Under the pieces are notes generated by a model that ran no database searches, had not been told where the DNA came from, and saw only the letters and a list, made by a program, of their open reading frames with translations. The position numbers and the translations under genes were made by a program. Below are positions 36,584 to 56,158 of a DNA stretch of 64,000 bases, in pieces. Every line of letters starts with the position of its first letter. Position 1 is the stretch's first letter. Source of the stretch: Minisyncoccota bacterium (GTDB taxonomy: Bacteria; Patescibacteriota; Minisyncoccia; Phycocordibacterales; UBA2100); assembly GCA_043780835.1 (NCBI GenBank), contig JAYWCB010000011.1, forward strand, positions 26,767-90,766. Reading direction: 5' to 3'.

Positions 36584-37579
36584 ATGATGTCACTGCCGTG
36601 GCGGCTCTTAGGAATGCGCACATTTGCAGTGCTCCTCCTTGTTCTGGTGTTTTTCGGCGGATTCCGGTTTGCCTCTGCCGGTTTTGGAATCACGCCTCCA
36701 TACGTGCGAAACGAACGTCTCACTCGCGGAACCGTATATGAGCAGCGCATCACACTTGTTCGTTCCGATCCGATTGACGATCAAAAGGCGGAAATTAGCA
36801 TGAATATACCGGGAGTAGAATCCTGGTTTAGTGTCGACAAAGGTACGTCATTTATCCTACCCGCGGGACAAACGCAGGTATCGATAGTGATATCTGTGCA
36901 TGTGCCGGCGGATGCAGAGTACACGCGCCACCAAGGTACTATTCGCATTCGAACATCGTCTGCCACAAATCAACCGGAAGGAGGGGGCGTATCTATCGCA
37001 CTCGGAGCGCAGATCGATGTGGATGTACTTGTCGTCGACAAAATTTATGACTTCGAGGTGCGTCGCATTCGTACATCGGATCTGGAAGAACCGCGTCATA
37101 AGTGGGGATTGTTGTTTCCTGCAAAAATTCGATTCTTTATGACGATCTCAAATACAGGGAACGCGGTCTATGGCCCGACCAAGGTAAAGCTCGATATTTA
37201 CGACAGTGAAGTTGAACGGTTGCAAGAGACGACGTATAACACAAACAAGATTGAACAAATTGCGCCGTTCGCGACCAAAGAGATTCTCGCGGAACTACCA
37301 ACGAGGCTTTCCGCGGGGCGCTATACGGCGAAATACACTATTTATAAAGGCGAGGACATCGCGCAGCAGGAGCAAATCAATCTCAGTGTGGCGGCAATTG
37401 GTGCAGTGCAAGGCTACAGCGGATACGGATTCGAGGGGCTTTCAACACCGGATAAATTAAAGGTGGCAGGGGTGCTCGCCATACCCGTCGTGGTTCTGCT
37501 CACACTGTTTACAATATTTGGCGTTCGTCGTCGTCGGAATCGGGCACGCAGATCTCAAGTGCCGCCGCGCATGCGGTAA
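36584..37579 (+). CDS. Secreted protein with C-terminal TM anchor and Arg-rich tail (paralog of 50859/52211/55094 family; DUF916-like architecture)
   Basis: Signal peptide, a beta-rich roughly 270-aa domain (GITPPYVRNERLTRGTVYEQRITL...SWFSV...ILPAGQTQVSIVISVHVPADA..HQGTIRI), then TM (VLAIPVVVLLTLFTIF) and a GVRRRRNRARRS tail. Confidence 0.55.
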   Translation: MMSLPWRLLGMRTFAVLLLVLVFFGGFRFASAGFGITPPYVRNERLTRGTVYEQRITLVRSDPIDDQKAEISMNIPGVESWFSVDKGTSFILPAGQTQVSIVISVHVPADAEYTRHQGTIRIRTSSATNQPEGGGVSIALGAQIDVDVLVVDKIYDFEVRRIRTSDLEEPRHKWGLLFPAKIRFFMTISNTGNAVYGPTKVKLDIYDSEVERLQETTYNTNKIEQIAPFATKEILAELPTRLSAGRYTAKYTIYKGEDIAQQEQINLSVAAIGAVQGYSGYGFEGLSTPDKLKVAGVLAIPVVVLLTLFTIFGVRRRRNRARRSQVPPRMR

Positions 37580-37587
37580 TCGCGCAT

Positions 37588-38727
37588 ATGCGTATGGCAC
37601 GTAAACCGCTCGTTGTTTCGGGAATTATTGTTGCATCGGCAATACTGTTCGGAGGCATGATACACATTGTTACTGCAGCGGATGTCCGCACATCGGTGAC
37701 CATGATTGTGTGTGGTGATGCGGTCGTGAGCCCATCCGGCGAGGCCTGTGACGACGGGACCAATCTGGGTGGATACGGTTCGACGACCGCGCAGCGTCGG
37801 TGCAATCCCGGGTGCCAATCTTTTGCGGAATACTGCGGCGACGGTGTGTTACAGGTGCGATTCAGTGAGCAATGCGACGACGGCAACACGATTGCAACTG
37901 ACCTCTGTTCGCTCACCTGTCGCACGCTTGCTCCTGCGGGTTCGACGCAGGTTTCCGGGTCGCCGACCGTCGGTTCGACGCCGTTTATTCCCGGAGCTTC
38001 TCCGGGCAACATTTCGTCTGAAACTAAAACGCGTGTGGTTTTGCGCGGAAAAGCATACCCCAATAGCACGGTGAGTATTTTGCTCGATGGCAAAGTAAAG
38101 GGTACAACCCTGGCCGATTCAAACGCTGATTTTCAATTCTCTTCGACCGATATTACCCCGGGTACCGCAACGTTCGGCTTTTCAGCCAAGGACGCAAAAG
38201 GTGTTGAATCGATCACGACGTCCGTGGTGTTTGATGTGGCTCAGAGCGCGGTATCGACGGTGGCAAACGTGTTCTTCCCGCCCACGATCTCAGTGAGTGA
38301 GCGACAAGTACCAAAAGGTGACCCATTGACCGTTTCAGGATATTCCGTGCCCAAAGCGTCGGTTTCAACCGAAATCGGGGGAGGTACGAAATCGGTACTG
38401 AGCGCGAATGCCGATGCGACGGGTGCGTGGGCGCTGCAAGTTGATACGAAGTCTCTCACTGACGGAATGCATACGGTGAAAGCGTTTTTCAAGCAGGATG
38501 GCGGCATACAGTCAGGGTTCGGTAAATCAATATCGTTTAGCGTCGGAGCCGGTGCGTTTGCTGATACGGGTTCGGCCGATCTCAACGGCGACCACAAAGT
38601 GAATCTGGTAGACTTTTCAATCTTCTTGCTCAAGTGGAACACGGATGATATTCAGGCCGATTTTAATGGCGACGGAACGGTAAACTTGGGAGACTTCTCA
38701 ATTATGTTGTTCAATTGGACCGGCTAG
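37588..38727 (+). CDS. Secreted protein: myxo-type Cys-rich repeats, Ig-like (Big) domains, C-terminal dockerin
   Basis: The signal anchor is followed by Cys-rich repeats (CGDAVVSPSGEACDDGTN...CNPGCQSFAEYCGDGVLQVRFSEQCDDGNTIATDLC), the pattern of Myxococcales-type disulfide repeats. Two Ig-like beta domains follow. The C-terminus ADLNGDHKVNLVDFSIFLLKWN...DFNGDGTVNLGDFSIMLFNW is a duplicated Ca-binding dockerin repeat. Confidence 0.65.
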   Translation: MRMARKPLVVSGIIVASAILFGGMIHIVTAADVRTSVTMIVCGDAVVSPSGEACDDGTNLGGYGSTTAQRRCNPGCQSFAEYCGDGVLQVRFSEQCDDGNTIATDLCSLTCRTLAPAGSTQVSGSPTVGSTPFIPGASPGNISSETKTRVVLRGKAYPNSTVSILLDGKVKGTTLADSNADFQFSSTDITPGTATFGFSAKDAKGVESITTSVVFDVAQSAVSTVANVFFPPTISVSERQVPKGDPLTVSGYSVPKASVSTEIGGGTKSVLSANADATGAWALQVDTKSLTDGMHTVKAFFKQDGGIQSGFGKSISFSVGAGAFADTGSADLNGDHKVNLVDFSIFLLKWNTDDIQADFNGDGTVNLGDFSIMLFNWTG

Positions 38728-38765
38728 ATCGATATATGCATACAAAAAACCGCTATACTACTCTT

Positions 38766-39695
38766 ATGTCACGTGCAATTACGATGTTTGTTGCGGTGGT
38801 AAGCATTTTTGCGCCGCTCACGGCCTCCGCTGCAATTTTGTATGTAAATCCCACGCAAGGTACGTACGGCGTGTCTGACACCTTTATTGCAGATGTTCGC
38901 CTCGATAATCAAAACGAATGCGTCAATGCTGCGCACGTAGAAATTCGCTATCCGACTGATGTGTTACGGGCGGTTGATTTCAGTAAGGGGAATTCGATCC
39001 TCAGTTTGTGGATTGAAGAGCCAAAAATCGATACCGAGAAGGGAATTATTACATTCTCCGGCGGAATTCCAGGAGGGTACTGCGGGCGTATTCCGGGGGA
39101 TCCCGTTCTTTCAAACGTATTGGGCAAAATCGTGTTCAGTGTCATTGCGACCGATAAAAGAAGTGCCACGGTTTCTATTGCTGACACCTCCGTGATGTAT
39201 CTCAACGACGGACAAGCAACGCCGGCAAAATTAGCGCTCCAGAGCGCGACGTATTTGATTTCGCAGACACCGCTTTCAGCAGCGAATCCATGGCTCTCCC
39301 AGGTCGGCGAAGACAAAACACCGCCCGATGCGTTCGTCATTTCGGTTGAATCAACACGCGGCGTTTTTGGCGGGAATTTTTATGCGGTTTTTGCCACCCA
39401 AGATAAGCAAAGCGGCGTTGATCACTACGAAATATTCGAACGAGGTACATGGCTACCCGTTACGAGTCCGCATGAACTCAAAGATCAAAAACTGATTGCG
39501 GAGGTGCAGATCAAAGCAATCGATAAAGCGGGCAATGAGCGCCTTGGCACGTACGTCACAGGTTCCGCGCCGCCTCGTGTTCCAAAAGAAGTGAACTACC
39601 CGATTTTGGTCGCAGTACTCATCGTGCTGCTCGCCCTCGGATTGTATATGTGGCATCGTGATCATACGCCCAGAATCATTCCGCCGAGTGCATGA
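38766..39695 (+). CDS. Secreted cohesin-domain protein with C-terminal TM anchor
   Basis: Trimmed to MSRAITMFVAVVSIFAPLTASAA. The cohesin-like domain is ILYVNPTQGTYGVSDTFIADVRLDNQNECVNAAHVEIRYPTDVLRAVDFSKGNSILSLWIEEPKIDTEKGIITFSGGIPGG, with a C-terminal TM (ILVAVLIVLLALGLYMW). Confidence 0.6.
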   Translation: MSRAITMFVAVVSIFAPLTASAAILYVNPTQGTYGVSDTFIADVRLDNQNECVNAAHVEIRYPTDVLRAVDFSKGNSILSLWIEEPKIDTEKGIITFSGGIPGGYCGRIPGDPVLSNVLGKIVFSVIATDKRSATVSIADTSVMYLNDGQATPAKLALQSATYLISQTPLSAANPWLSQVGEDKTPPDAFVISVESTRGVFGGNFYAVFATQDKQSGVDHYEIFERGTWLPVTSPHELKDQKLIAEVQIKAIDKAGNERLGTYVTGSAPPRVPKEVNYPILVAVLIVLLALGLYMWHRDHTPRIIPPSA

Positions 39696-40678
39696 TGAAA
39701 CAATTTCTCTTTGTTGCGCTGGTACTCATCCTTACTCCGTCGATTTCGTACGCTGCTGATGGATCACTGTACCTCTGGCCGGCACGCGACATCCATGCAA
39801 TCGGAGACATCTTCGAAGTAGCGGTGCGTGCAAATACAGACGGTGTCTCCGCCAACGCCGCGGAAGCCGACATCGCGTTTAACACCAACGCGCTCGCTGT
39901 CGAGAGTATTTCGACTACCGGTTCGGTGTTATCGTTCTGGCCGACGGCAGCCACATTTTCTAACGACAAAGGCACAATCCGATTTTCCGGAACCGCAGCG
40001 GGAAGTTTTAATTCCGATGCTGCGACACTCGTCTCGATAAAATTCCGCGCTAAAAGTAATGTTCCTGGGGATGTGCATATCGATTCAGGTGCACTGCTTT
40101 TAAATGATGCGCGCGCGACAAACATAATTGCGAGTATGCATTCCGGCCTGTACACCGTGACCGCGCGAGCGCTTCCTCCTGCAGCAGAATCGATACCGCT
40201 TGCGGCTACGACCACTGAGGCGACTGCGCCTGTGCCCGAAGTAAAAGGCGTCGCAATTCAAGTGCCAACAATAAAAGCGTACGACGATCACATCTTGAGT
40301 GGTGAGCGTATTGCGCTGCAAGGTACGGCTGCCCCCAGTTCGAAGCTTTCGGTTTTTCTGCAGTACGGGGACGATGCGCCGCGGGAAAGTGCAGTGCTTT
40401 CCACGAGCGATGGCACATTTATATATGTTTCCGCCGAACCCGCCCATCGCGGTGTCTATCACGCGTGGGCTGTGGTTCAGACGGCTCGCAATCAACTTTC
40501 GTCAGATAAAATTGTGATCAGTGCACAGTCGCGCGGGCTTTCCGCTGCGGGCGAATCGATTGGGCCGATCCTCACGCGTGCGTTACCGTACGTGGTGCTT
40601 CTTATAGGAGCGGTTCTATTGCTCGGCTATTTTTATAATCGTAAATCGCGCGCTGGCGTTACTGGCGCATCCGTGTAA
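39692..40678 (+). CDS. Secreted cohesin-domain protein with C-terminal TM anchor
   Basis: Signal peptide MMKQFLFVALVLILTPSISYA. Cohesin-like pattern: LYLWPARDIHAIGDIFEVAVRANTDGVSANAAEADIAFNTNALAVESISTTGSVLSFWPTAATFSNDKGTIRFSGTAAG. C-terminal TM LPYVVLLIGAVLLLGYFY. Its start overlaps the stop of the preceding gene. Confidence 0.6.
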   Translation: MMKQFLFVALVLILTPSISYAADGSLYLWPARDIHAIGDIFEVAVRANTDGVSANAAEADIAFNTNALAVESISTTGSVLSFWPTAATFSNDKGTIRFSGTAAGSFNSDAATLVSIKFRAKSNVPGDVHIDSGALLLNDARATNIIASMHSGLYTVTARALPPAAESIPLAATTTEATAPVPEVKGVAIQVPTIKAYDDHILSGERIALQGTAAPSSKLSVFLQYGDDAPRESAVLSTSDGTFIYVSAEPAHRGVYHAWAVVQTARNQLSSDKIVISAQSRGLSAAGESIGPILTRALPYVVLLIGAVLLLGYFYNRKSRAGVTGASV

Positions 40679-41441: not shown

Positions 41442-41456
41442 ACAAAAAGTCTAACA

Positions 41457-42458: not shown

Positions 42459-42845
42459 ATGATGAACAAAAAAGACGAATACATATCTCTTCGCGAAGCG
42501 GCAGCGATTGCTGGGTATACACCGGACTATGTCGGGCAACTCATTCGCAGCGGCAAAATTCCAGGAAAGCAGGTGTTTGCGAACGTTGCATGGATGACTA
42601 CCGAGGAAGCCGTGCGGAGCTACGCGGGGCAAAAGAAAGGAAAAAACTCCGGAAAAGATGTGATTGCCCCCACAATATTCGAAACCCTCCAGCGTGAGAT
42701 CGACTCGCCTCGAATCGTAAAGCGTCTTTCGATTGCGCTCATCGTGATGAGTGTCGCATTTATGCTCTTGCTCTTCTATATCTTTTCAACGTCGCTCGAC
42801 CAGCGACTCAATCAGCGCGCGATACAGCGGCTCGAGCAAACATAA
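42459..42845 (+). CDS. HTH_17 (excisionase/MerR-like) DNA-binding domain protein with C-terminal TM helix
   Basis: The N-terminal ISLREAAAIAGYTPDYVGQLIRSGKIPGKQV matches the HTH_17/excisionase-type helix-turn-helix. C-terminal TM IALIVMSVAFMLLLFYIF. The ORF track begins at TTG 42453; ATG 42459 was chosen. The stop lies 4 nt before the next giant gene. Confidence 0.6.
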   Translation: MMNKKDEYISLREAAAIAGYTPDYVGQLIRSGKIPGKQVFANVAWMTTEEAVRSYAGQKKGKNSGKDVIAPTIFETLQREIDSPRIVKRLSIALIVMSVAFMLLLFYIFSTSLDQRLNQRAIQRLEQT

Positions 42846-42849
42846 AATC

Positions 42850-45800
42850 ATGAACACACACAGTCAATCATGGGTACGCATGATTCGGGAGACAACGCGA
42901 CTGGCCGCGATTCTTTCATGTACGGTATTTGTGCTCGGATCGTTTGCTCCGGTGGCGCTCGCTGCAACCGGTGTACCACGAATCATGAACTACCAGGGAC
43001 GTCTCATGAATGCGGGTGGATCATTGCTTGGTGGTGCAGGAACTGATTACTGCGTACGTTTTTCACTGTATGACAATGCGTCGGTTGGATCAGGGGCAAA
43101 ATTGTGGCCGTCAACCGCACCGTCAACCATGACTGTTGTTGTAAAAAACGGCGTGTTCAACGCGGGCGTCGGTGATACCAATGCCGGCGGCGACACGCTC
43201 AACTTTAATTTTGAAGACACCGATACCGCATATCTCAATGTGGAGGTTGCAACAAAAGTTGGTCCGACCTGTGCTCCGGGCGATGGTGTAGAAGTTTTTG
43301 AAAACCTTTCGCCGCGACAGCGCGTAACCGCCTCGGGATATGCAATTAATTCCGCCACCCTCAACGGAAAGAGCGGGAGTTACTATCTCGCAAATTCCTA
43401 TGCAACCACGAGCGCCGCATACAACCTCAACACGTACGACAAAGGATATTTCTTTTCCACCACGTCGGTTACCTATTGGGACACCACACAGTTTCGTTGG
43501 GCAACAACGAGTTCTGATGCATGGTTTGCAACGAAAACAACAGACGGCCTAACCCAAGGTTCAACAAATCTTTATTACTCGAACAATCTCGTCAACGGTT
43601 TCATTGCAGGATCTTCTACTATCCCAAAGTCTTATACAAACAATGCATATACCGGTACGAACTCGTTTACCGGTGATGTAACACTCGCAAATGCGACGAC
43701 TTCTAATTTCAATATCACGAACACGATCTCCGGAGCCGGACTCATATCGTGCTCGAGTTCGACAGATAAAGTGATATGGAATGCAAGCACTCGTCAGTTT
43801 GGCTGCGGGGCAGACGCAGGTGCGGGCGGCGGAATTACCGCACTCGGTGCGCAGTATTCGGTATTCCAAACGGGCGCATCGCAAACATTTGCAACCTCAT
43901 CTGACACCAATATCGGAATCACCATAACCTCATCGGGAGACACGCACACGTTTGCGCCAAAGTGGTTCGGATCACTTGCTGCCGGTCGCGGCGGTACCGG
44001 TATTACATCGATTTCTCAAAACGGGATATTGATCGGCGGAGCAGGTAACACGTGGGGACAAGTCGCAACATCATCGCTTGGGCTACCCACCTATGGTGAT
44101 CTCGGGGCATACCTAGGTCTCGCTGCGTGGTATGCAACGACGACTGACGCACTTGCCGAAGGCTCAAACAATAAATACTTTACGACCAACCGTGTTGCCG
44201 GCGTGCTCGCAGGAACCACCACTGATGCAATTGCTGAAGGTGCAACAAACAAGTACTATACGGACCCACGCGTGCAAACCTACCTCAATGGTGTGTCAAA
44301 AGGGTTTTTCTTCTCCACCACATCGACCGATTTCTGGAAAACCCAAAACAATTTCTTCTCGACCACGTCCGCGTCGCACTTTTCTTCGCTTGGCCTCGCG
44401 TTTTCGACAACCTCAAGTGCATTCTTCCTGTCGCAAAATCAGGGCGCTGCGTTTTCTACCACATCTACCGACTACTATGTGGGAGCGACAACATCGATTC
44501 CTAAAACATACACAAACAATACCTATAGCGGCACCAATTCATTCCAAAATGTTTCCGCAACGGGTGCAACGACCACATCGTCGTACACGGCAACTGCAAG
44601 TTCTACGAATCTCTTCTCGAATCTCGCAACGATCGGATCGCTGATTTCCGGCGCAATTACCGGCAACACACTGACTGCAACCAACGCGACCACCACGGTA
44701 CTCTCTGCAGGCACCGCATCGACTTCGAATCTCACGATCTCGAACATTCAGAACTCGATGCTATACACCGGCCCGGGTGGCGTTGTAACTGCGGCTAGTA
44801 TTTCAGGCCCGCTTTCATTTAGCGCAGGTGCGCTTTCAATTTCGCAGGCAAACGCGTCAACAAATGGATACCTTTCATCCGGTGATTGGAATGCGTTCAA
44901 TAGCCGACTCTCCACGTCTTCGTTGGGGACGATCGACAAGGGTTATTTCTTCTCCACAACCTCAACCGACTTCTGGAAAACGCAGAATAATTTCTTCTCC
45001 ACCACGTCCGCGTCGCATTTTTCTTCGCTTGGCCTCGCGTTCTCCACAACCTCTAGCGCATTCTTCCTGTCGCAAAATCAGGGCGCCGCGTTTTCTACGA
45101 CATCCGCGTCGCACTTTGCGTCTGTCGGTCTCGCACACTCAACGACATCAGATGCGTATTTCCTTTCACAAAATCAGGGGAGCGCGTACTCGACCACATC
45201 AGAGAACTACTATCAGCACTCGTCATCAACTGTTGCAACAACCTATAAAAGTAATACGTTCACCGGTACGAACGGTTTCCAGAATATTTCGGCAACGGGT
45301 GCAACAACCACATCGCTTTCAACCGGAATCGCTTCCACGACAAACCTCACGATCTCCGCGTTGCAAAATTCGATGCTCTACACGGGACCGGGCGGCATCG
45401 TGTCGGCTGCGAGTATCACAGGGCCGCTTTTGTTTAGCGCCGGCACGCTTTCGATGCAGCAATCAGGCGGCACGCTGAGCGGGTATCTGTCTTCGTCGGA
45501 TTGGAACTCGTTCAACAGTCGACTCTCTACCTCGACACTCGGGCTTATTGATAAAGGATTCTTTTATTCAACGACATCTGAAGATGCATACATTGGTGCA
45601 ACCACATCAATACCGAAAACATATACCGCAAACACATTTATTGCACTGAACAGCTTTGCAAACATAACCGCAACCGGTGCTACAACCACGTCGCTCTTTT
45701 CCACGACCGCATCGTCCACAAATATATTCGCAAACGCGGCTCGCTTCGGTTCGCTCGGCGCGTTCTCGCTCGTCGGATCAGTCGCAGCTGCAGCGAACAG

Positions 45801-47694
45801 TATTACGGGGATCAGCATCGCATCGACGACTGACTTATGGATTTCAAATATTCGTGACGGATTACTTGCGACAAACGCACAGGGGAATGTGGTCGCCTCA
45901 TCCACACCGACCGCAGCGAGCTTCAATGCAACAAGCAATACGGTCGCATCACAACTCCCATATGCATCCACCACCGCAGTCTCCGTATTGCAGCAACTTT
46001 CAATCGGTGCCGCCAACGGAACGATCTTTCAGGGTGCTGTTGCCGGCACGTCGACCGTTGCAGGAGTCATCAACGTAACGGGCACGAACTCCACTTCAAC
46101 ATTTTCGGGTGGAGTAGCGGCAACCCGTTTGAATCTCACGTCGGGTACGTCAACCGCTGCGAACGGATTTAGTATCGCAAACGGCTGCTATTCTATTAAC
46201 GGTGTATGCGAACTGTCTTCAGTAACTGCGGCAAACTCGACGATCACGGTCACTCCGGGTAATGGCACAGCTGCTATTTCGCTGAATCTTGCAAACCCGA
46301 ATGTGTGGTCTGGTCTACAGCAATTTGGTAATGCAACAACAAGCCTACTCGAAGCCACGCAGTTCTATGCACGAACCATCCAATCCACATCTACGAATGC
46401 ACTCATCCTTAAATCAAACTTTTCTTCAACGGCGGGCCTCACCTTCGGTAGTACATCAACTCCGCAGGTGCTCGGTATCGATACGATCAATAATCGCGTA
46501 ACACTCGGCACAGGTGGTGCGAATCCGAGCCTCCTTGTGTTCGATACAAAAAACACGTTGGGTGATCCCGTTGGGGTCGCGGGTGCGGAATACTACAATA
46601 GTAATAGTGGTGCTTTTCGCTGCTTTGCATCAAGTTGGGTGACCTGTGGGGGACAGGCCGCCAGCTCAACCGGCGATGTACAGTTCAGAAATGTTGACGG
46701 CTCATTCACAGCCACGTCCAACTTCAACTGGTCGCTCGCAAGTAATAGCCTTTCAATTAAAGGTGTTGCCGGGCAAACGGCCGGTATTTTCACTATTGCC
46801 TCGTCGACCGGCGTTGCGTTATTCGGTGTAAGTGCAAACGGAGTTCTGGAATTCGCGACGACCACGGATCCTGCAACGCCGTCCCTTGGTTTGGATGTCT
46901 ACGCAAAAACAATTGCGACCCGTGCCTTCATTGCCACAAAGGATCAAAACGGTCTTGTCGGATCGCTGCAACCGCTCATGGCCCGTAACAAAGTCGGTTT
47001 CTGGAATCCGGCGGGCAATAGCGTAAGCGCTCCGGGCGTCTTTGGATTTCCGGCATTTACGACAACGGGCACGGTAACGGCGCGCAGCGTTGCTACTACG
47101 AACCTCGCGAACCGGCTTCGGCGTATCGGTTATGTGAGCACTGCCGTTGCGGGTAACTTTGCAGAAACGCGCGTAGCTGTCGCGCAATATTCAATCGGCA
47201 CGGGCACCGGAGTCGGCGGCTTTACAATGATTGCGCGATTCGTCCCGTCAGATGCTGCCGCGGTGGCGGGTGAACGATTTTTTCTCGGTCTCACGTCTAC
47301 AACGATCGCTGCGACCAACGTTGAACCCACGACGCTCACGAATTCTATCGGCATTGCGCAAATCAGTACGTCTACGAACTTGTTCCTGGTGTACGGAGGA
47401 AGTGTTCCTCAAACACCGATTGATCTTGGTGCGAACTTTCCGGCCGCAGGTCTATCGACTGACGCGTACGAGCTCAGTCTGTTTTCAAGTCCCAATGCCT
47501 CCACGACAATCGGATACGAAGTGACGCGTATCAATACCGGTGACACGGTTTCCGGAACGCTCACGGGTGCAGGCGGGACGGCGATTCCACTTTCGACAAC
47601 ACTCCTTACCTTTAAAGCGTGGAAAACCAACAATGCGACGGCTGCAGCAGCGGCGTTCGACCTCTCATCTATTTACTTAGAAACCGATAATTAA
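42850..47694 (+). CDS. Giant fibrous Ser/Thr/Gly-rich surface protein (1,614 aa) with signal peptide and internal tandem repeats
   Basis: Trimmed to MNTHSQSW...AAILSCTVFVLGSFAPVALAATG (signal peptide). The conserved-looking N-terminal domain (IMNYQGRLMNAGG...CVRFSLYDNASVGSGAKLWPS...VVVKNGVFNAGVGD...YLNVEVA...LSPRQRVTASGYAINSATLNG) is followed by very long S/T/G/A/N-rich fibrous sequence. Confidence 0.8.
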   Translation: MNTHSQSWVRMIRETTRLAAILSCTVFVLGSFAPVALAATGVPRIMNYQGRLMNAGGSLLGGAGTDYCVRFSLYDNASVGSGAKLWPSTAPSTMTVVVKNGVFNAGVGDTNAGGDTLNFNFEDTDTAYLNVEVATKVGPTCAPGDGVEVFENLSPRQRVTASGYAINSATLNGKSGSYYLANSYATTSAAYNLNTYDKGYFFSTTSVTYWDTTQFRWATTSSDAWFATKTTDGLTQGSTNLYYSNNLVNGFIAGSSTIPKSYTNNAYTGTNSFTGDVTLANATTSNFNITNTISGAGLISCSSSTDKVIWNASTRQFGCGADAGAGGGITALGAQYSVFQTGASQTFATSSDTNIGITITSSGDTHTFAPKWFGSLAAGRGGTGITSISQNGILIGGAGNTWGQVATSSLGLPTYGDLGAYLGLAAWYATTTDALAEGSNNKYFTTNRVAGVLAGTTTDAIAEGATNKYYTDPRVQTYLNGVSKGFFFSTTSTDFWKTQNNFFSTTSASHFSSLGLAFSTTSSAFFLSQNQGAAFSTTSTDYYVGATTSIPKTYTNNTYSGTNSFQNVSATGATTTSSYTATASSTNLFSNLATIGSLISGAITGNTLTATNATTTVLSAGTASTSNLTISNIQNSMLYTGPGGVVTAASISGPLSFSAGALSISQANASTNGYLSSGDWNAFNSRLSTSSLGTIDKGYFFSTTSTDFWKTQNNFFSTTSASHFSSLGLAFSTTSSAFFLSQNQGAAFSTTSASHFASVGLAHSTTSDAYFLSQNQGSAYSTTSENYYQHSSSTVATTYKSNTFTGTNGFQNISATGATTTSLSTGIASTTNLTISALQNSMLYTGPGGIVSAASITGPLLFSAGTLSMQQSGGTLSGYLSSSDWNSFNSRLSTSTLGLIDKGFFYSTTSEDAYIGATTSIPKTYTANTFIALNSFANITATGATTTSLFSTTASSTNIFANAARFGSLGAFSLVGSVAAAANSITGISIASTTDLWISNIRDGLLATNAQGNVVASSTPTAASFNATSNTVASQLPYASTTAVSVLQQLSIGAANGTIFQGAVAGTSTVAGVINVTGTNSTSTFSGGVAATRLNLTSGTSTAANGFSIANGCYSINGVCELSSVTAANSTITVTPGNGTAAISLNLANPNVWSGLQQFGNATTSLLEATQFYARTIQSTSTNALILKSNFSSTAGLTFGSTSTPQVLGIDTINNRVTLGTGGANPSLLVFDTKNTLGDPVGVAGAEYYNSNSGAFRCFASSWVTCGGQAASSTGDVQFRNVDGSFTATSNFNWSLASNSLSIKGVAGQTAGIFTIASSTGVALFGVSANGVLEFATTTDPATPSLGLDVYAKTIATRAFIATKDQNGLVGSLQPLMARNKVGFWNPAGNSVSAPGVFGFPAFTTTGTVTARSVATTNLANRLRRIGYVSTAVAGNFAETRVAVAQYSIGTGTGVGGFTMIARFVPSDAAAVAGERFFLGLTSTTIAATNVEPTTLTNSIGIAQISTSTNLFLVYGGSVPQTPIDLGANFPAAGLSTDAYELSLFSSPNASTTIGYEVTRINTGDTVSGTLTGAGGTAIPLSTTLLTFKAWKTNNATAAAAAFDLSSIYLETDN
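44290..45700 (+). repeat. 645-bp intragenic tandem duplication (2 full copies plus a partial) in the 42850..47694 gene
   Basis: Blocks at 44306..44460 and 44950..45105 are about 93% identical at nucleotide level. They encode (K/I)GFFFSTTSTDFWKTQNNFFSTTSASHFSSLGLAFSTTSSAFFLSQNQGAAFSTTS twice; a third, more diverged copy starts near 45545. Confidence 0.7.
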
Positions 47695-49486: not shown

Positions 49487-49488
49487 CT

Positions 49489-50826
49489 ATGCACATCTCG
49501 CAGAACATAAAACGAATCGTGCTTGGCGCATGTAGTGCGCTCATGATCGTTTCTATTTCCGCATCGTATGTATTTGCGCAGGAGCTCACGAGTTCGAGTT
49601 TTAGCCTCAACAACAACGGTTTTACCGCATGGGGCGGGTATTCTACAACGAGCAATTTTTCTTCGTTTGGCAGCGAGGCGCAGCCGGGCAGCGGGGAATC
49701 ATCGAGTGCGAGTTTCTCGCTTGCGAGCGGGTATCTCTATCCAGTCGATACCAGCCCGCTCGCGACGCAGAATTGGAAATGGTTTGATGATTCAACGAAT
49801 TTCACACCGACGATTGCGCTCGCCGGCGAAAACGTGTCACCGTCAAATGTTGGATTCGATGATCCCTTGAAGCTTCGCATTACGGTGAAGGATATTGGCG
49901 GGTCCGGTGTAACAGGACTCAAGCTTCGCTTGCAATACGCAACGTCGTCCGACTTTTCCGCCGGCGCAATCTTTGTTGCTGAGCAGGGGCAGTGTAATTT
50001 GACAATCTGGTGCTACGCGGATGGCGCTGGAGTTGATAATACTGTCATTAGCGATACTGTTTTGTCTGATCCCGATGCGTGTTCCGGAGGATTGGGTACC
50101 GGATGCGGCACCTACAATGAATCCGGCACCACCACATCAACTTTTTATCACTCCCCGGGAAAAAAGACCGAATACGAGTTCACGTTGAAACAAATTCTGG
50201 GCGTTCAGAGTACGGTGTATTTCTTTCGTCTGGTAGACGCGAGCACCGGTATTCCCGTGCCGCTCAACACGGGGGCCACGTATCCGAGTCTGATGATTAA
50301 CGGTGCGTCGTTAACATTTTCTATTGGCGGACTGACTTCCGGCACCTCAACCGAAGGCGTGACGACTGACATTGCAACGTCGCCCACGACTATTAGTTTT
50401 GGAACGTTGCTTCTCAACACACCAAGAATCGCCGCGCATCGATTGACGGTGACGACAAACGCAACGTCGGGGTACAAAATTTATACCTATCAGCGACAAG
50501 GGCTTTTGAACCAAAGCGCGCGAGAGCTTCCACCCGTAAATACCACTAATAGCGCGCCGTCCGGCTGGGCGTCTGCGTGCACGTCGACCTCGACCGGATG
50601 CTACGGTTATCACTCCGGTCAGGACGTGCTAGAAGGAGGCTCAACGCGCTTTGCAGCGGATGACAGCTATGCGCAATTTACGTCGTCGCCCGACGAAGTC
50701 GCGTTTAGTGCAGGTCCCGCAACAAATGCAATGACCGACATGGTCTATAAAATTGAAGCGAAAGATTTACAAGACTCTGGCGTGTACGAAAGCACGATTG
50801 TCTATATCGCAACCCCCGTTTTCTAA
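49489..50826 (+). CDS. Secreted protein, family A (paralog of 53804..54955); WxL-like C-terminal region (tentative)
   Basis: Signal peptide MHISQNIKRIVLGACSALMIVSISASYVFA. The C-terminal part has APSGWASACT and the terminal YKIEAKDLQDSGVYESTIVYIATPVF, which parallels YKVEIGSLQEAGSDYTNILTYVATPIF in the paralog. Confidence 0.6.
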   Translation: MHISQNIKRIVLGACSALMIVSISASYVFAQELTSSSFSLNNNGFTAWGGYSTTSNFSSFGSEAQPGSGESSSASFSLASGYLYPVDTSPLATQNWKWFDDSTNFTPTIALAGENVSPSNVGFDDPLKLRITVKDIGGSGVTGLKLRLQYATSSDFSAGAIFVAEQGQCNLTIWCYADGAGVDNTVISDTVLSDPDACSGGLGTGCGTYNESGTTTSTFYHSPGKKTEYEFTLKQILGVQSTVYFFRLVDASTGIPVPLNTGATYPSLMINGASLTFSIGGLTSGTSTEGVTTDIATSPTTISFGTLLLNTPRIAAHRLTVTTNATSGYKIYTYQRQGLLNQSARELPPVNTTNSAPSGWASACTSTSTGCYGYHSGQDVLEGGSTRFAADDSYAQFTSSPDEVAFSAGPATNAMTDMVYKIEAKDLQDSGVYESTIVYIATPVF

Positions 50827-50858
50827 ACTGTGCATAAAAATACAATACTTTTCTTGCT

Positions 50859-52214
50859 ATGCTTGCGATATTCGTCTCTATGACATTGAAGAAAACGATA
50901 CTCCCGTTTTTTGTGTTGTGTATTCTTGCTGCGGGGCTTCTTCCATTCGTCGTGCGGGCGGACTCTGATCTCACCGTTTTGCCCATTGTTGTTGATGAAA
51001 AAGCAAAAGCACGCGATATCTTGAAAGAATCGGTCACGATCACAAATAATAGTGCGCGCGTGCTCCAAATATATCCGTCGGTCAACGACGTAAAACCGCA
51101 GGAAGGCCAAAGGGCATTTATTGAGGCACAAAGCGGCACCGAACGCTCTGACTCATTGGCCAATTGGATAGAAATCTCTCGCGGAGTCATTGAATTGAAG
51201 CCGAAAGAGTCAAAAGAGATTCCGTTTGTCATTCGTGTGAATCTCAATGCGGTCGCAGGCACCTATCACGCTGACGTTTCTTTCTATGAAGGCGGTAACC
51301 GTGAGGACGCCGAGAAAACGCACCCGCTCTCAGTCGTGACCGTAAACACCGAGGTGCAGGCGAATATAAAAGAGTCAATGCAGTTGAATAAATTTGTTAC
51401 GGATAGTTTTTTCTTCTCCGGAGATGACGTGTTGTTCAACTATCAGCTAGAGAATATCGGTAACCAGGAATTGAAACCGAAAGGGGAGATTCGTATTTAT
51501 GATCGCAAGGGCCACGAGGTTGCGACGGTGCCGGTGAACCCGGACGGCAAAAGCTTTACACCCGATCAGGCTGCACAGCTTGCAAGTGCATGGAGCGCAG
51601 CCAGAGGGTTCGGTAAATTCAAGGCGTTTCTCAATATAGATTACGGCAACGGTAACGGCTCGCTGCAGGATACTGTCTTTTTCTGGATTATTCCATGGCA
51701 GCAGTTGCTCGCAATTGTGGTGGTGAGCATCATTGGGATCATTGTGTCTGCGTTGTATTTCCACCGATGGCTTGAACAGCGTCACATGCAGCGCTTTGCG
51801 CTCGCAACCGGAATGCCAATGGCCGGAGCGGGTGTTGCAGCCATGCAAGCACCTCCTGGGATGCTCACACAGAAAAGACCCCCGCACATGACGACCGTCA
51901 TGCCGGTAATTCCAAAACAGGAGAAAAAGAGCTTCTTTTCACGATTTCGTCGCGCGAATAAGGCGCCCATCGTTGCAAGTGTGCAAAACACTTCGCCAAT
52001 TCCCACCGTGGTGCCGGCAGCTGCGCTGCTCACACCACCTGTGCATAATGCCGATCAATCACAAATTATTGTCCACGGGGAGGAGTCGGCATCTGCTCCG
52101 GTGCAGACGCTCGCGCCACAATCCAATCGCACCATCAATCTGTCGTCGACCAACATGGGCACGTCGCCGCAAAAAAACCCGGGGCGCGTGATAAATCTAA
52201 AAAACGGCTCATGA
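50859..52214 (+). CDS. Secreted protein, family B (DUF916-like architecture): signal peptide, beta-rich domain, C-terminal TM and long cytoplasmic tail
   Basis: Signal peptide (ILPFFVLCILAAGLLPFVVRA). The domain (LTVLPIVVDEKAKARDILKESVTITNNSARVLQIYPSVNDV...SLANWIEISRGVIELKPKESKEIPFVIRVNLNAVAGTYHADVSF) is followed by TM (LLAIVVVSIIGIIVSALYF) and a roughly 140-aa tail. Confidence 0.6.
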   Translation: MLAIFVSMTLKKTILPFFVLCILAAGLLPFVVRADSDLTVLPIVVDEKAKARDILKESVTITNNSARVLQIYPSVNDVKPQEGQRAFIEAQSGTERSDSLANWIEISRGVIELKPKESKEIPFVIRVNLNAVAGTYHADVSFYEGGNREDAEKTHPLSVVTVNTEVQANIKESMQLNKFVTDSFFFSGDDVLFNYQLENIGNQELKPKGEIRIYDRKGHEVATVPVNPDGKSFTPDQAAQLASAWSAARGFGKFKAFLNIDYGNGNGSLQDTVFFWIIPWQQLLAIVVVSIIGIIVSALYFHRWLEQRHMQRFALATGMPMAGAGVAAMQAPPGMLTQKRPPHMTTVMPVIPKQEKKSFFSRFRRANKAPIVASVQNTSPIPTVVPAAALLTPPVHNADQSQIIVHGEESASAPVQTLAPQSNRTINLSSTNMGTSPQKNPGRVINLKNGS

Positions 52215-53536
52215 TGCACAGTTTTCGCACGGTCTTTTTTACTGCACTCATCCTGTGCACATGGCTTTTCGGCATCACGAGTGTGTCCGCCCAGGAATCA
52301 CTCTCTGTTACGGTCACGCCGCCACTGTTTCAGCTCAGTATCGGTCCCGGTGAATCATGGACGAGCACGATCAAAGTTATCAACAATAATTCGTATGACG
52401 TACAGTATGCGCCGCAGGTCGTCGATTTTGAAGCGCAAGGGGAGACCGGCCAGGGAAAGTTTGTGCCGCTCATTAATGCGTTCGGAGGTGGCGAACAAAG
52501 CAGTAATTCACTCGGGAGCTGGATAGAAATTTCCAAAGATCCGGTGCTTATACGTTCTGGACAGAGCGCGCAACTCAATTTTACGGTCCATGTACCGCAA
52601 AACGCCGAACCGGGCGGGCATTACGCTGCGATCATGGTCGGACCCCACGAAGCAGATACCGCACAAGGATCGCACATGAAAATATCGAGCTATGTTACGT
52701 CGCTTATCATGGTGCGAATCAAGGGGGATATTGTGGAAAGCGGGCGTATTCGTGAATTCACGACTGATAGATCGCTCTATCAGAAGCCGGAAGCGCAGTT
52801 TGTTCTGCGATTCGAAAACACCGGCAATACGCACTTGCGCCCACAGGGTCTTATTACGCTTCACAACATGTGGGGAAAAGAGCGCGGTCAAGTGCTCATT
52901 AATGAGAAGAGTAATTTCGGCAACGTGTTACCGCACTCAATTCGCAAGTTCGAATTCACGTGGAATGGTGAAGACAGCCTATTTGATATCGGTTTATATA
53001 GTGCGGTCGTTACGCTCAACTATGGCGACGATGCGAAGCAAAATGCTTCCGCAACAAGTTATTTTTGGGTGGTCCCGGTGGTGCCGGTGACTATCACGCT
53101 CATCATAGTGCTTAGTATTGTGCTTATTCTAATGTGGTTTATACGACGGTATGTACGCCGCGCGCTCTCACTCGAGCATCTTCATGTCGCGGCTGGCGCA
53201 CACCCGAATGTGCCGGATCGCCAGGAACCGCCTATGATTGAACACGTCTCTACGCTTCGCGCGCTCGTGCAGCCCATAAAAGACGGTGTTGTTGACCTTC
53301 GAAGCGTCGGCACTGTTATTGAACAGAATGGGGTAGTCGCGACACCTACATATATTCGTCCGCTTACATTTGGCGGTTTTGTTCGCAAATACCGACTTTT
53401 CTTTGCTTTTTTACTGGTGCTCGCGGTACTTCTCGTTGGTATATCGCTCTATTTCAAGGCAGTGCTCGTGTCGCACCGTGATTTCCAAATCAAAGCAATC
53501 GCACCCGCGAGCAGCTCATCTGCCTCAGTTCGCTAG
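52211..53536 (+). CDS. Secreted protein, family B paralog (DUF916-like architecture)
   Basis: Signal peptide. The domain (LSVTVTPPLFQLSIGPGESWTSTIKVINNNSYDVQYAPQVVDF...GSWIEISKDPVLIRSGQSAQLNFTVHVPQNAEPGGHYAAIMVGP) is collinear with 50859 and 55094. TM VVPVTITLIIVLSIVLILMWF. Its start overlaps the preceding stop. Confidence 0.6.
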   Translation: MMHSFRTVFFTALILCTWLFGITSVSAQESLSVTVTPPLFQLSIGPGESWTSTIKVINNNSYDVQYAPQVVDFEAQGETGQGKFVPLINAFGGGEQSSNSLGSWIEISKDPVLIRSGQSAQLNFTVHVPQNAEPGGHYAAIMVGPHEADTAQGSHMKISSYVTSLIMVRIKGDIVESGRIREFTTDRSLYQKPEAQFVLRFENTGNTHLRPQGLITLHNMWGKERGQVLINEKSNFGNVLPHSIRKFEFTWNGEDSLFDIGLYSAVVTLNYGDDAKQNASATSYFWVVPVVPVTITLIIVLSIVLILMWFIRRYVRRALSLEHLHVAAGAHPNVPDRQEPPMIEHVSTLRALVQPIKDGVVDLRSVGTVIEQNGVVATPTYIRPLTFGGFVRKYRLFFAFLLVLAVLLVGISLYFKAVLVSHRDFQIKAIAPASSSSASVR

Positions 53537-53602: not shown

Positions 53603-53803
53603 GTTGTGCTTGATATCAACTGATTTGTCAACAGTATGCCGTATACTTTACCCATGCGAGTTTATTCGGCGCCGTACGTTTCTAGCTGCTTTGGTCGAGC
53701 AATAGCAGGTGGATGCGTATTTTCTCTCTAGGCGCAGAACAGATCGCTCATTAGAAGAAACTATTAGTACGCTTAAAAACAAACGACAGTTCAATTTATT
53801 TAT

Positions 53804-54955
53804 ATGAACGTATTCGAACAAGCAAAGAAAAATCCGATCGCATCGTTCTTGTCGTCGCCGATCGCGTTGGTTCTCATTATATCGACCCTCTTGTGGGCGA
53901 CAGGACTCCCGCTCTTGGTTTCGCGAGCCGACGCTGCGCAGCTCACGTTAGTGAGTGACACACTGACCGACTCTAATCCGAGTACCGCGAATCGCAACGT
54001 TATCAAATTCACATCAGCCACATCATCAATCGCAGGTCAGACTATAGCGATAGTGTGGGATCCAGTAGGAAGCGCGTTCTCACAAGTTGCACTTACCGCA
54101 ACGACGACGCAGATAACAGTCACCGGCATGACGCTCGTGACTACATGCGGTGGTGCTGCCGATGAAGTCACGGTACAGCAGGTATACACAGCGGGTAGTG
54201 AAGGTGTCGTATTTACGGTGTGTGCTACTGACACGGTGACCCCTGGAGCAAAGATCATTACCCTGGGAACATCCACGCCCTTCATTTCGAATCCTGCTGC
54301 CGCAGGTTCGTATCGGATTACTGTCACCGGCACAAATGGTGATACGGGAGAAGCGCGGGTCGCAATACTTCCACATGTAACCGTAACCGCTGCAGTGGAC
54401 ACCACGTTCACCTTTACTGTTGCAGGTCTCGCGACCTCAACGACGGTGAACGGTGATACGTTGACGGGTTCTACAACGGCCACGGTGATTGCATTCGGAA
54501 CGCTTGCTCCGACGGTTGCAAAGATAATGGGTCAACAGTTAAGCGTAACCACAAACGCATCAAACGGATTCTCCGTTACCGTTGTTGAGAATCAAAACCT
54601 CTTATCGGCAACGGGAGCAGACATTGACCTCTTCCAGGATGGCGCTGCTACCGCAGTTCCGATCGCCTGGGCGTCTCCCACAAACACACTTGCGGCAGGT
54701 GAAGCGAGTTATGGTCACATAGGTGTGACAAGCGAAGACACTACATTGTCCGCTGGCGCTGAATTCTCGGGCACAAAATATGCTGGTAACTTCAATACCG
54801 CGCGACAAGTGTTCTACAGCACAACGCCGGCCGATGGTACAACTGCCGGTGTAGGCACAACGAAAGTTGCGTACAAGGTAGAAATCGGTTCACTGCAGGA
54901 AGCAGGTTCTGATTACACCAACATCCTCACGTACGTTGCAACGCCGATCTTCTAA
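53804..54955 (+). CDS. Secreted protein, family A paralog; WxL-like C-terminal region (tentative)
   Basis: A signal anchor (IASFLSSPIALVLIISTLLWA), a Thr-rich beta domain, a C-terminal roughly 180 aa with PIAWASPTNTL, and the terminal YTNILTYVATPIF. Confidence 0.6.
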   Translation: MNVFEQAKKNPIASFLSSPIALVLIISTLLWATGLPLLVSRADAAQLTLVSDTLTDSNPSTANRNVIKFTSATSSIAGQTIAIVWDPVGSAFSQVALTATTTQITVTGMTLVTTCGGAADEVTVQQVYTAGSEGVVFTVCATDTVTPGAKIITLGTSTPFISNPAAAGSYRITVTGTNGDTGEARVAILPHVTVTAAVDTTFTFTVAGLATSTTVNGDTLTGSTTATVIAFGTLAPTVAKIMGQQLSVTTNASNGFSVTVVENQNLLSATGADIDLFQDGAATAVPIAWASPTNTLAAGEASYGHIGVTSEDTTLSAGAEFSGTKYAGNFNTARQVFYSTTPADGTTAGVGTTKVAYKVEIGSLQEAGSDYTNILTYVATPIF

Positions 54956-54975
54956 GCTCGAAAAACAGTCAAACA

Positions 54976-55003
54976 AAAACCCGCGAACTACGCGGGTTTT
55001 TGT
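54976..55003 (+). terminator. Rho-independent terminator
   Basis: AAAAACCCGCGAACTACGCGGGTTTTTG is a perfect 7-bp GC stem with a T-run. Confidence 0.65.
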
Positions 55004-55093
55004 TTGGAATTTTATCCAGAGTAGCGCTGCAAGCCGATGGCAAGCCGATGGCAAGCCGTGGTACAGTTCACGCATAATAATAGCCGCATTGAT

Positions 55094-56158
55094 ATGAGAG
55101 ATTCCCGCACCACATACGTTTTTTACGGTTTTTTGATCGCATTTTTAACATTGGTCGGTGCGCAGAGTGCAGGCGCGCAAGCGCAGGGGATCTCTATTAA
55201 ACCCGCAGTGATTGAAGATCGGGTTGCCCCGGGTGCTGTGTACAACTACTCAATCAAAGTCACCAATGTTTCTGATGCGGAAAAGACATATTTTCTCAGT
55301 GCGCAGGATATCAAAGGGCTCGATAACGGCGGGCTTCCGATATTCGCAACCGATAGCGAAAAGACGCCATACGAACTGAGTTCATGGATCTCGCTTTCAG
55401 TAACATCGGTAACGATCGCCCCGCATCAGGAAAAAGAAGTTTCTTTTTCGGTTCGTGTGCCGCAGGATGCTTCACCCGGCGCGCACTTTGGGGGAATTTT
55501 CCTCGACGACACACCGGCGAAATTACACTCAACCGGATCTTCTATCGCTATGAAAGTCGGACCGATTATCAACCTGCGCATTGCGGGGAATGCGACAGAG
55601 GACGCACAAATGCGAGAATTCTCGACTGCGCACATTGTGTACGGGTCAGCGGGAGATGTGTCATTTCAGGTGAAGGTCGCAAACCTCGGTAATGTGCTGG
55701 TGCGACCACGCGGATTTATCGAAATTACTGACATGCGCGGATCCAAAATCGATGTTATTAAACTGAATGATGCGGGCGCCGGAGTTTTTCCTGCTGCAGA
55801 CAAGATCTTTAGTGTGGCGTGGAAATACGACAGGTTTGCATTTGGTCGTTATCAAGCGGTCGCGAGCTTGGTGTACGGAGAAGATGGGCAGAAAACTATC
55901 AGTGCAGCAACGAGCTTCTGGGTATTGCCGTTGAAACCGATTCTCACGGTGCTTGGTTCCATCTTTGTGGTATTACTCATACTCTACGTACTCGTACGCA
56001 CCTATATCTCCCGCAAACTTCGCGAGATGGGCGGTAGCAGGAGTGATTTATATGCGAAGCGGAATCAGTCTCCGGTGCCGCGACTGCTCGTCGTTGCGCT
56101 TTCTTTGCTATTCCTTGCGATTGTGTTTCTCGTGCTCTTGTTCCTCATGTTTGCCTAA
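55094..56158 (+). CDS. Secreted protein, family B paralog (DUF916-like architecture)
   Basis: Trimmed to MRDSRTTYVFYGFLIAFLTLVGAQSAGAQA. The domain is GISIKPAVIEDRVAPGAVYNYSIKVTNVSDAEKTYFL...SSWISLSVTSVTIAPHQEKEVSFSVRVPQDASPGAHFGGIFL. TM (ILTVLGSIFVVLLILYVLV) and a tail containing a second hydrophobic segment. Upstream lie a TTATCCAGA motif at 55011 and a TGgTACAGT extended -10 at 55059. Confidence 0.6.
   Translation: MRDSRTTYVFYGFLIAFLTLVGAQSAGAQAQGISIKPAVIEDRVAPGAVYNYSIKVTNVSDAEKTYFLSAQDIKGLDNGGLPIFATDSEKTPYELSSWISLSVTSVTIAPHQEKEVSFSVRVPQDASPGAHFGGIFLDDTPAKLHSTGSSIAMKVGPIINLRIAGNATEDAQMREFSTAHIVYGSAGDVSFQVKVANLGNVLVRPRGFIEITDMRGSKIDVIKLNDAGAGVFPAADKIFSVAWKYDRFAFGRYQAVASLVYGEDGQKTISAATSFWVLPLKPILTVLGSIFVVLLILYVLVRTYISRKLREMGGSRSDLYAKRNQSPVPRLLVVALSLLFLAIVFLVLLFLMFA

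Follow-up and report, generated by a model that had tools for sequence, protein, structure and literature searches.

Two filaments of "Candidatus Mycosynbacter amalyticus" (Saccharimonadia) have been solved by cryo-electron microscopy and are built up through donor-strand exchange, without any usher (Troman et al., bioRxiv 10.64898/2026.03.03.709456). In that study, the pilins of this Pam system (PamA and PamB) comprise a signal peptide, an N-terminal β-sandwich domain, a linker, and a truncated immunoglobulin (Ig)-like C-terminal domain. The operons also encode PamC and PamD, which resemble PapD and FimC and carry a C-terminal transmembrane (TM) helix; the single-domain tip subunit PamT; a further pilin-like protein, PamE; and PamR, an RbmA-like protein that has two fibronectin type III domains, a TM helix, and an extra N-terminal strand and is proposed to act as terminator and anchor. 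ATP synthase genes and a gene for a "tail fibre-like protein" lie near pam operons, and relatives of PamA were reported in Microgenomatia (bioRxiv 10.64898/2026.03.03.709456). Here, we analyze a stretch of 64,000 nucleotides (referred to as the window) from a Minisyncoccota genome (GenBank assembly GCA_043780835.1, contig JAYWCB010000011.1, positions 26,767 to 90,766), in which the genes for two families of secreted proteins, A and B, alternate. The block between 49.5 and 56.6 kb is probably a Pam-type pilus operon of a bacterium of the class Paceibacteria, within the candidate phyla radiation (CPR), with a further B gene, B1, as a distal paralog.

The cluster also resembles Firmicute WxL clusters, which Hassan, Chaudhuri and Williamson (2023) define by a WxLIP, which is composed of DUF916 (PGBD), DUF3324 (HBD), and a C-terminal TM helix, together with at least two WxL proteins (PF13731) within four genes of the WxLIP. 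By this definition, the window contains a WxLIP (B4) but neither two WxL proteins nor their dual Trp-x-Leu motif. An initial annotation, made from the sequence of the window, had likened the whole array to WxL/DUF916 loci; this description holds for family B, whose members are WxLIP homologs, and fails for family A, which matches a Pam pilin domain instead.

Results

An alternating cluster of two paralogous families

The window encodes two A and four B proteins, all on the + strand (Table 1). Their genes read A-B-B-A-B between 49.5 and 56.2 kb, while the fourth B gene, B1, stands apart 12 kb upstream; searches of the 64 kb with two hidden Markov models (HMMs), one for the C-terminal domain of A and one for the ectodomain of B, found no extra copy of either family. 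In an all-against-all BLASTP comparison of the open reading frames (ORFs) of the window, A1 and A2 align over their C-terminal ~198 amino acids (aa) with 28 % identity (E 4.5e-16), and B2, B3, and B4 are linked to one another (B2 and B3, E 6e-22; B2 and B4, E 5e-23; B3 and B4, E 3.7e-37). B1 is the outlier, with a BLASTP link to B4 only (E 2e-5), but is still recognized by the B-ectodomain HMM. All six proteins have an N-terminal hydrophobic signal segment, as judged by hydropathy and by AlphaFold2 (AF2) models of A1 and B4, and in each of the four B proteins a TM helix follows a β-rich ectodomain of ~270 residues (hydropathy, and AF2 for B4).

In all of these respects (ORF coordinates, paralogy within each family, gene order, signal peptides, and TM helices), our analysis agrees with the initial annotation. 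It had missed a second hydrophobic segment at the extreme C terminus of B3 and B4, and several of its motifs needed amendment. The C-terminal motif of family A is real but reads Y-x3-(I/L)-x-Y-(I/V)-A-T-P-(V/I)-F, so that the first Y is followed by three residues, not two; the W-A-S motif, placed 110-120 aa before the C terminus, in fact lies 86 (A1) and 95 (A2) residues from it; and the VP..A..G motif of family B is complete in B3 and B4 only, since the P is replaced by N in B2 and the G is absent from B1.

Table 1. Coordinates of the A/B cluster and of other features discussed, given as positions in the window
Feature	Coordinates	Strand	Description
A1	49489..50826	+	Secreted Pam-type subunit, 445 aa, ends ...YIATPVF
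B2	50859..52214	+	WxLIP-like chaperone-type protein, 451 aa; signal peptide, two Ig-like domains, TM helix 271-305
B3	52211..53536	+	WxLIP-like chaperone-type protein, 441 aa; two Ig-like domains, TM 281-316, hydrophobic segment 389-422
A2	53804..54955	+	Proposed major (shaft) pilin, 383 aa, ends ...YVATPIF
Intrinsic-terminator-like hairpin	54969..55007	+	Between A2 and B4; 17-bp stem, 8 G-C pairs, T-rich tail
B4	55037..56158 (373 aa) or from 55094 (354 aa)	+	Paralog closest to WxLIP
B1	36584..37579	+	Distal divergent B paralog, 331 aa, Arg-rich tail; B-ectodomain HMM 214 bits
Small protein	56162..56557	+	131 aa, two TM segments; directly after B4; conserved neighbor
Secreted repeat protein	42751..47694	+	1647 aa; upstream of cluster; conserved neighbor
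Secreted protein	57551..59266	+	571 aa; A2-like N-domain, C-terminal dockerin instead of Pam domain
Cohesin-like N-domain and C-terminal TM helix	38715-39695 and 39692-40678		
Cohesin-like domain	9950-11443		
ORF with cohesin-like domain and dockerin	40659-41441	-	
Dockerins	37588-38727 and 57551-59266		
Giant secreted protein	11558-29212		5884 aa
Secreted protein	34599-36506		635 aa; just upstream of B1
FGE-sulfatase/SUMF1-like protein	56704-57549		Between cluster and dockerin protein

Family A carries the C-terminal domain of Pam pilins

A1 consists of a signal peptide, a PamT-like N-terminal module (residues 28-88), an inserted β-sandwich (~90-272), and a Pam pilin C-terminal domain (272-445). 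It matches the NCBIfam model NF058581 (CPR_Pam_pilin_C, "Pam pilus system pilin subunit") with an E value of 2.1e-7 over model positions 3-148 of 148, and the same model is matched by 51 of the 63 family A members (best E 3.7e-11). The PamT model, NF058579, is matched by 8 of the 63 members. Small PamT-like ORFs match this model end to end and have the N-terminal module joined directly to the C-terminal domain; A1 is made of the same two parts, but these are split by an insert of ~185 aa, A1 also has a junction strand, and the window A1 itself gave no match to NF058579. A2 is composed of a signal peptide, an N-terminal β domain, the junction strand TFTFTVAGL, and a Pam-type C-terminal domain, and scores 169.5 bits against the HMM of the A C-terminal domain; its ortholog in locus L059 matches NF058581 (E 1.3e-4). 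As judged from sequence, these comparisons show a CPR Pam pilin C-terminal domain in both A1 and A2 and, in A1, also the N-terminal module that PamT-like subunits have.

The AF2 model of A1 (predicted local distance difference test [pLDDT], 83.4) contains a signal helix (4-23), a β-sandwich (~91-270), and a C-terminal β domain (~275-445). Residues 26-85 fall below a pLDDT of 50 in this monomer model, yet their sequence is conserved, and conservation alternates along the junction strand LTFSIGGL; both features may be a hint of donor-strand assembly. The insert has conserved cysteines (169/175 and 198/206) and resembles residues 1492-1630 of the 5884-aa surface protein of the window.

A terminator-like hairpin follows A2

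The 70 nt 3' of the A2 stop codon, which include an intrinsic-terminator-like hairpin (Table 1), fold at -29.8 kcal/mol. In related loci, 17 of 25 A2-type genes reach -20 kcal/mol or lower in the 70 nt past the stop codon (median, -24.1), compared with 2 of 50 A1-type genes (median, -8.6); random windows do so in 17.5 % of cases. After A2-type genes the position of the hairpin is conserved and its sequence is not. Attenuators follow major pilin genes, for example papA and fimA, and by analogy with these the hairpin would mark A2 as the abundant shaft subunit. We propose that it acts as an attenuator that sets a high ratio of pilin to chaperone. Promoter-like sites showed no enrichment over shuffled sequences and were not used.

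Family B is homologous to WxLIP

Among the families that the initial annotation had put forward, PF06030 (WxLIP_PGBD/DUF916) is matched by B4 above the gathering score (36.0 versus 27.3 bits) and by B2 and B3 below threshold (15.5 and 13.4 bits), while PF11797 (WxLIP_HBD) is matched weakly, under threshold, and by B1 only (12.4 bits; B1 also matches CARDB at 16.2 bits). PF06030 is further matched by 13 of 59 B family members and, always over the whole model, by 5 of 10 B-like proteins of Microgenomatia, WWE3, and related loci. An HMM of 339 positions, built from 120 full-length Firmicute WxLIPs, matches B4 over positions 52-272, comprising both Ig domains (E 1.7e-12), as well as B3 (E 6.8e-5). 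When 1728 ORFs from the CPR loci and the window were searched with this HMM, it had 62 matches at E<=1e-3, every one of them a family B member. Profile-profile comparison of the 120 Firmicute WxLIPs with 152 CPR B ectodomains gave a probability of 98.4 % (E 5.9e-15) over 234 columns and both domains; B2 scores 384 bits against the B-ectodomain HMM. Family B is homologous to Firmicute WxLIP across both Ig domains.

The predicted structure of B4 agrees with this assignment and with the β-sandwich folds that the initial annotation expected. The start of B4 is ambiguous (55037 or 55094); with residues counted from 55094, its AF2 model (pLDDT, 85.9) starts with a signal helix, which is followed by Ig-like domains at 33-138 and 158-278, a TM helix spanning 280-313, and a second hydrophobic helix at 330-353. 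The top three Foldseek matches of this model in the PDB are Enterococcus faecium WxLIP (9i25_C, "bound to long WxL," E 6.3e-13; 9i1y, E ~5e-12), followed by RbmA (E 4e-11) and by the chaperones CfaA, CupB2, Caf1M, and FimC (E 3e-9 to 2e-7). The best PDB sequence match of B4 is likewise a WxLIP, EfmWxLIP1, but is weak (E 0.03) and was found with B4 alone; a PDB search with a mixed B profile returned nothing useful. The match to RbmA suggests that some B paralog could fill a PamR-type role, although the extra N-terminal strand of PamR was found in none of the B proteins by alignment. In B2, the TM helix is followed by a low-complexity tail of ~150 aa that is predicted to be cytoplasmic.

The homology of B with WxLIP over both domains would also suit a WxL-type complex, in which the A proteins are monomeric adhesins held noncovalently on the cell surface and the B proteins are membrane-anchored, WxLIP-type scaffolds that bind and stabilize them, with no filament formed; such a complex has been proposed for Enterococcus and Lactobacillus. 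Firmicute loci alternate likewise (WxL-WxLIP-small protein-WxL[-WxLIP]), A and WxL proteins are alike in having their conserved domain at the C terminus with an aromatic β-strand at its end, and strand insertion into WxL is predicted for WxLIP (PMC10599100); a WxLIP-WxL complex has been solved (9i25). Family A, however, is not WxL by any test that we applied. PF13731 (WxL) matched neither A1 or A2 nor any of the 63 family A members at E<=1, and none of the scanned neighbors in the window at E<=0.01. The dual W-x-L motif was not found in family A, which has a single invariant Trp in W-A-S and ends in Y-(I/V)-A. PDB sequence searches with A1, A2, and the family A profile gave no match at E<=10 in a copy of the database that includes the WxL chain of 9i25 and lacks PamA and PamB. 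In hhalign, the A C-terminal domain scored 23.5 against a WxL alignment of 11 domains from six Firmicute loci (P 0.007, probability 5 %), which exceeds column-shuffled controls (mean, 9.2; maximum, 17.5) and a reversed control (10.3), but unrelated pairs score alike (A C-terminal domain versus B, 23.2; WxL versus WxLIP, 25.2), and earlier, thinner alignments gave no signal. We therefore did not accept this score as a sign of homology: the alignment is collinear, but with a score no better than that of the unrelated pairs, homology is not demonstrated. Since family A instead matches the Pam pilin domain, whose founding members form filaments in cryo-electron microscopy, and since the hairpin after A2 suits a bulk structural subunit, we consider a WxL-type complex unlikely and a Pam-type pilus operon the better description of the locus.

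A-B adjacency is conserved across CPR loci

A B gene lies no more than 600 nt after an A gene in 62 of the 81 A-bearing loci, which come from Paceibacteria, Microgenomatia, and WWE3; most of the exceptions are contigs that end too early. Paceibacteria loci follow the pattern A1-B-B-A2-B, in which A1 has either ~445 aa or a giant length of 1000-2400 aa, while the Microgenomatia-type pattern is a small A (~250 aa), B, a long A (~485 aa), and B. Where named, relatives of A and B belong to lineages of the Paceibacteria type, for example Kaiser-, Adler-, Harrison-, Azam-, Sung-, Yanofsky-, and Lloydbacteria; all relatives are annotated as hypothetical. In the Harrisonbacteria locus L001, with 46 % A1 identity, the string opens with a large upstream protein; A1-B-B-A2-B come next, then a small TM protein, a protein that combines the A2 N-domain with a dockerin, and cohesin proteins.

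The genes that surround the A/B cluster differ between loci while A-B adjacency persists, which argues against a generic surface-protein island, in which the A and B proteins would be independent adhesins or S-layer-like proteins brought together by shared regulation or secretion. Such an island is suggested by the composition of the window, ~50 kb of which encode secreted or surface proteins (the 5884-aa giant, cohesin and dockerin proteins, and FN3 proteins), and by the many weak matches of family B to generic Ig-like families (CARDB, fn3_5, and FixG_C). Yet the tight adjacency in 62 of the 81 loci spans CPR classes, genes overlap or are closely spaced (the start of B3 overlaps the stop of B2 by 4 nt), and the matches to the Pam pilin domain and to WxLIP are specific rather than generic. 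We regard an island of unrelated surface proteins as very unlikely and continue to favor the Pam-type pilus operon.

Three observations concern individual loci. Giant A1-type ORFs (1000-2400 aa) that end in a Pam-type C-terminal domain occur in several Paceibacteria, in loci L029, L031, L035, L037, L040, and L047-L054, and suggest that very large adhesins may be mounted on or handled by the same machinery. An A-B-A-B locus (L067; CP011212.1, 665374-681943) is found in the record "candidate division TM6 bacterium GW2011_GWF2_28_16"; its B protein is, by eye, ~80 % identical to that of a Microgenomatus metagenome-assembled genome (L076), and its GC content is 36 %, versus the 28 % implied by the name of the record. 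Finally, many metagenome-assembled genomes among L005-L081 bear titles that look doubtful ("uncultured Candidatus Saccharibacteria," "Gammaproteobacteria," and "Pseudomonadales"); the A1-type proteins of these contigs are 40-64 % identical to the window A1, alongside records titled Paceibacteria or Paceibacterota.

Neighboring genes

Several neighbors of the cluster recur in other loci. The 131-aa protein with two TM segments has no family match, but a homolog lies at the same position in Harrisonbacteria L001 (tblastn E 1e-5). A small protein is also found in the Firmicute loci L087 and L084, which read WxL-WxLIP-small protein-WxL-WxLIP; there it has an LPXTG-like or TM end, and a small TM protein follows B4 too. 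Residues 57-206 of the 1647-aa secreted repeat protein are 59 % identical to the product of the gene immediately upstream of A1 in L001. The window protein itself has no Pfam match, and its relative in L003 matches PF21722 (Gly_rich_2) and, faintly, Peptidase_G2; tentatively, the repeat protein is possibly the "tail fibre-like protein" of pam operons.

The 571-aa secreted protein is homologous to the A2 N-domain over residues 21-191 (BLASTP E 3e-7) and carries a dockerin (PF00404, 31 bits), and a counterpart follows the cluster in L001. One display domain is thus combined with two anchoring devices, the Pam C-terminal domain and the dockerin. This protein belongs to a cohesin-dockerin set of this CPR genome (37588-41441, 9950-11443, and 57551-59266 in the window); equivalents flank the Harrisonbacteria A/B cluster.

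B1, whose orthologs are 60-83 % identical, is flanked by the 635-aa secreted protein on one side and by dockerin and cohesin genes on the other, and has the same neighbors in GCA_040959275.1. The C terminus of the 635-aa protein is homologous to the last ~220 residues of the 5884-aa secreted protein (E 5e-18). We considered this common C-terminal domain as a third class of subunit but do not count it as one, since its comparison with the A C-terminal domain, with WxL, and with B gave nothing significant.

The FGE-sulfatase/SUMF1-like protein (PF03781, 51.6 bits) has an N-terminal hydrophobic segment. Because a modification on a PamA serine has been reported (bioRxiv 10.64898/2026.03.03.709456), it could modify surface proteins.

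Discussion

The Pam pilin match of family A and the architecture of the helper proteins of family B fit the Pam pilus system, and we propose a scheme for how the encoded proteins might assemble. A1 and A2 would be exported by Sec. On the outside of the cytoplasmic membrane, the incomplete Ig-like C-terminal domain of each subunit would be capped by a β-strand lent by a B protein, with the invariant aromatic end ...Y(I/V)xTP(V/I)F as the likely recognition strand. Polymerization would then proceed by donor-strand exchange, free of an usher, with the junction strand (LTFSIGGL in A1 and TFTFTVAGL in A2) occupying the groove in the subunit before it. A2 would be the abundant shaft subunit, as the attenuator hairpin suggests, whereas A1 may be a distal, probably adhesive subunit, given its PamT-like module, the insert that it has in common with the giant surface protein, and its giant size in some relatives. 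A role as membrane anchor or terminator, like that put forward for PamR, may fall to one of the B paralogs. The filament could function in host-cell contact, as proposed for "Ca. Mycosynbacter amalyticus."

Several points weigh against this interpretation. All scores against the NCBIfam Pam models are under the curated cut-offs: A1 reaches 31.1 bits versus 55 for NF058581, and the PamT-like ORFs reach 30-43 bits versus 240 for NF058579. These models appear to be tuned to Saccharimonadia, and Microgenomatia relatives likewise stay under the cut-off of NF058581 (18-39 bits); with such scores the curated models miss the Paceibacteria branch, which explains why it is annotated as hypothetical everywhere. 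The window A2 has no direct Pam match and is linked to the system via A1 and via its own orthologs, and the NCBIfam Pam models match no B protein, either in the window or in Microgenomatia-type loci. A Foldseek search with full-length A1 against the PDB copy without PamA and PamB returned generic tandem-Ig structures (integrin legs, FnBPA, and Fabs; TM-score ~0.2). Among the window genes that were scanned, we saw no ATP synthase genes of the kind that neighbor pam operons in the published study. Finally, we infer filament formation in Paceibacteria from genes and single-chain models, and the assignments of A1 to the tip and A2 to the shaft are made by analogy.

The locus is a divergent Paceibacteria variant of the Pam pilus system and not a categorically new one. 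The initial annotation had supposed that a WxL-type locus in CPR would be unreported; the locus type itself was described in 2026 as the CPR Pam pilus, but WxL, DUF916, and DUF3324 are absent from that paper (bioRxiv 10.64898/2026.03.03.709456). What goes beyond the published description is the presence and conservation of the system in Paceibacteria, its insertion-bearing or giant PamT-like subunits, and the homology of the CPR helper proteins with WxLIP, which is essentially shown. In our search of the literature, we found no work linking WxL, DUF916, or WxLIP to CPR or to donor-strand or chaperone-usher concepts, and the link between WxLIP and the Pam helpers appears to be unreported.

A broader possibility, which we raise tentatively and hold to be rather doubtful, is that a single ancient chaperone-subunit system, belonging to single-membrane bacteria, has Pam pili and Firmicute WxL clusters as its two branches. 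The subunits are the weak point of this idea, for homology between A and WxL is not demonstrated. If the shared origin were true, WxLIP would be a membrane-anchored, pilus-type chaperone and not a scaffold that binds peptidoglycan or host, and a single strand-accepting module would have diverged into the Pam pilin C-terminal domain on one side and the WxL domain on the other. WxL proteins might then assemble, and possibly polymerize, through strand complementation. Donor-strand assembly in which no usher takes part would be older than the Gram-negative chaperone-usher pathway or a parallel to it.

Our analysis extends the Pam machinery to the Paceibacteria (Parcubacteria), which rank among the largest CPR classes and in some lineages of which it is fused to giant adhesins, and it offers a concrete candidate for how these uncultured episymbionts reach their hosts. 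It also ties a CPR organelle to the virulence- and adhesion-linked surface clusters of enterococci, listeriae, and lactobacilli, and suggests that WxLIP may be an assembly factor that donates a strand in the manner of a chaperone.

Compared with chaperone-usher pili (Pap/Fim, the class 5 CFA/I system CfaA-CfaB-CfaE, Csu, and Caf1), the locus encodes a helper, B4, that is similar in fold to CfaA, CupB2, Caf1M, and FimC, and subunits with a conserved aromatic C-terminal strand. A further parallel is the terminator hairpin past the presumed major-subunit gene, which recalls attenuation at papA and fimA. Full-length A1 also matches, weakly, the tip adhesins CfaE and CsuE, which have two domains (Foldseek E 5e-4 to 1e-3). 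The locus differs in that there is no outer membrane, the chaperone-like protein is anchored in the membrane, and there is no match at the sequence level; there is also no usher, and Pfam scans of 26 window proteins (~10 to 64 kb) found none of the usher families. In Pam pili, moreover, the donor strand is the interdomain linker and not an N-terminal extension as in chaperone-usher pili.

With the WxL clusters of Enterococcus, Lactobacillus, and Listeria, the locus shares a WxLIP homolog (B) of the same signal peptide and TM architecture, the alternation of WxLIP genes with genes for secreted partners whose conserved domain is C-terminal, and a gene for a small membrane protein within the cluster. 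WxLIP has been reported to bind its partner by strand insertion, as in the scheme proposed here for B. Unlike in those clusters, the partners are not WxL domains, and both the phylum and the cell-envelope context differ; WxLIP has also been read as a scaffold that binds peptidoglycan and host rather than as a chaperone of pili.

The locus also differs from the Pam system itself. The host belongs to Paceibacteria rather than to the Saccharimonadia and Microgenomatia stressed by Troman et al.; similarity is confined to the C-terminal domain and lies under the NCBIfam cut-offs; the PamT-like subunit has an insert of ~185 aa and in some relatives reaches 1000-2400 aa; the genes are ordered A-B-B-A-B, with a fourth B at a distance and no separately recognizable PamE or PamR found; and filaments were seen in M. 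amalyticus, whereas the window locus is known from genes alone. In common with the Pam system, the C-terminal domain of A1 matches the curated Pam model over its full length and a PamT-related module is present; the A subunits have a signal peptide, a β-sandwich, and a C-terminal Ig-like domain, as modeled for A1; the B proteins have two Ig-like domains and a TM helix, as do PamC and PamD, to which we liken them by their published description and not by sequence; B4 matches in fold both the PapD/FimC class of chaperones and RbmA; and pilin and helper genes alternate in one usher-free operon of a CPR host.

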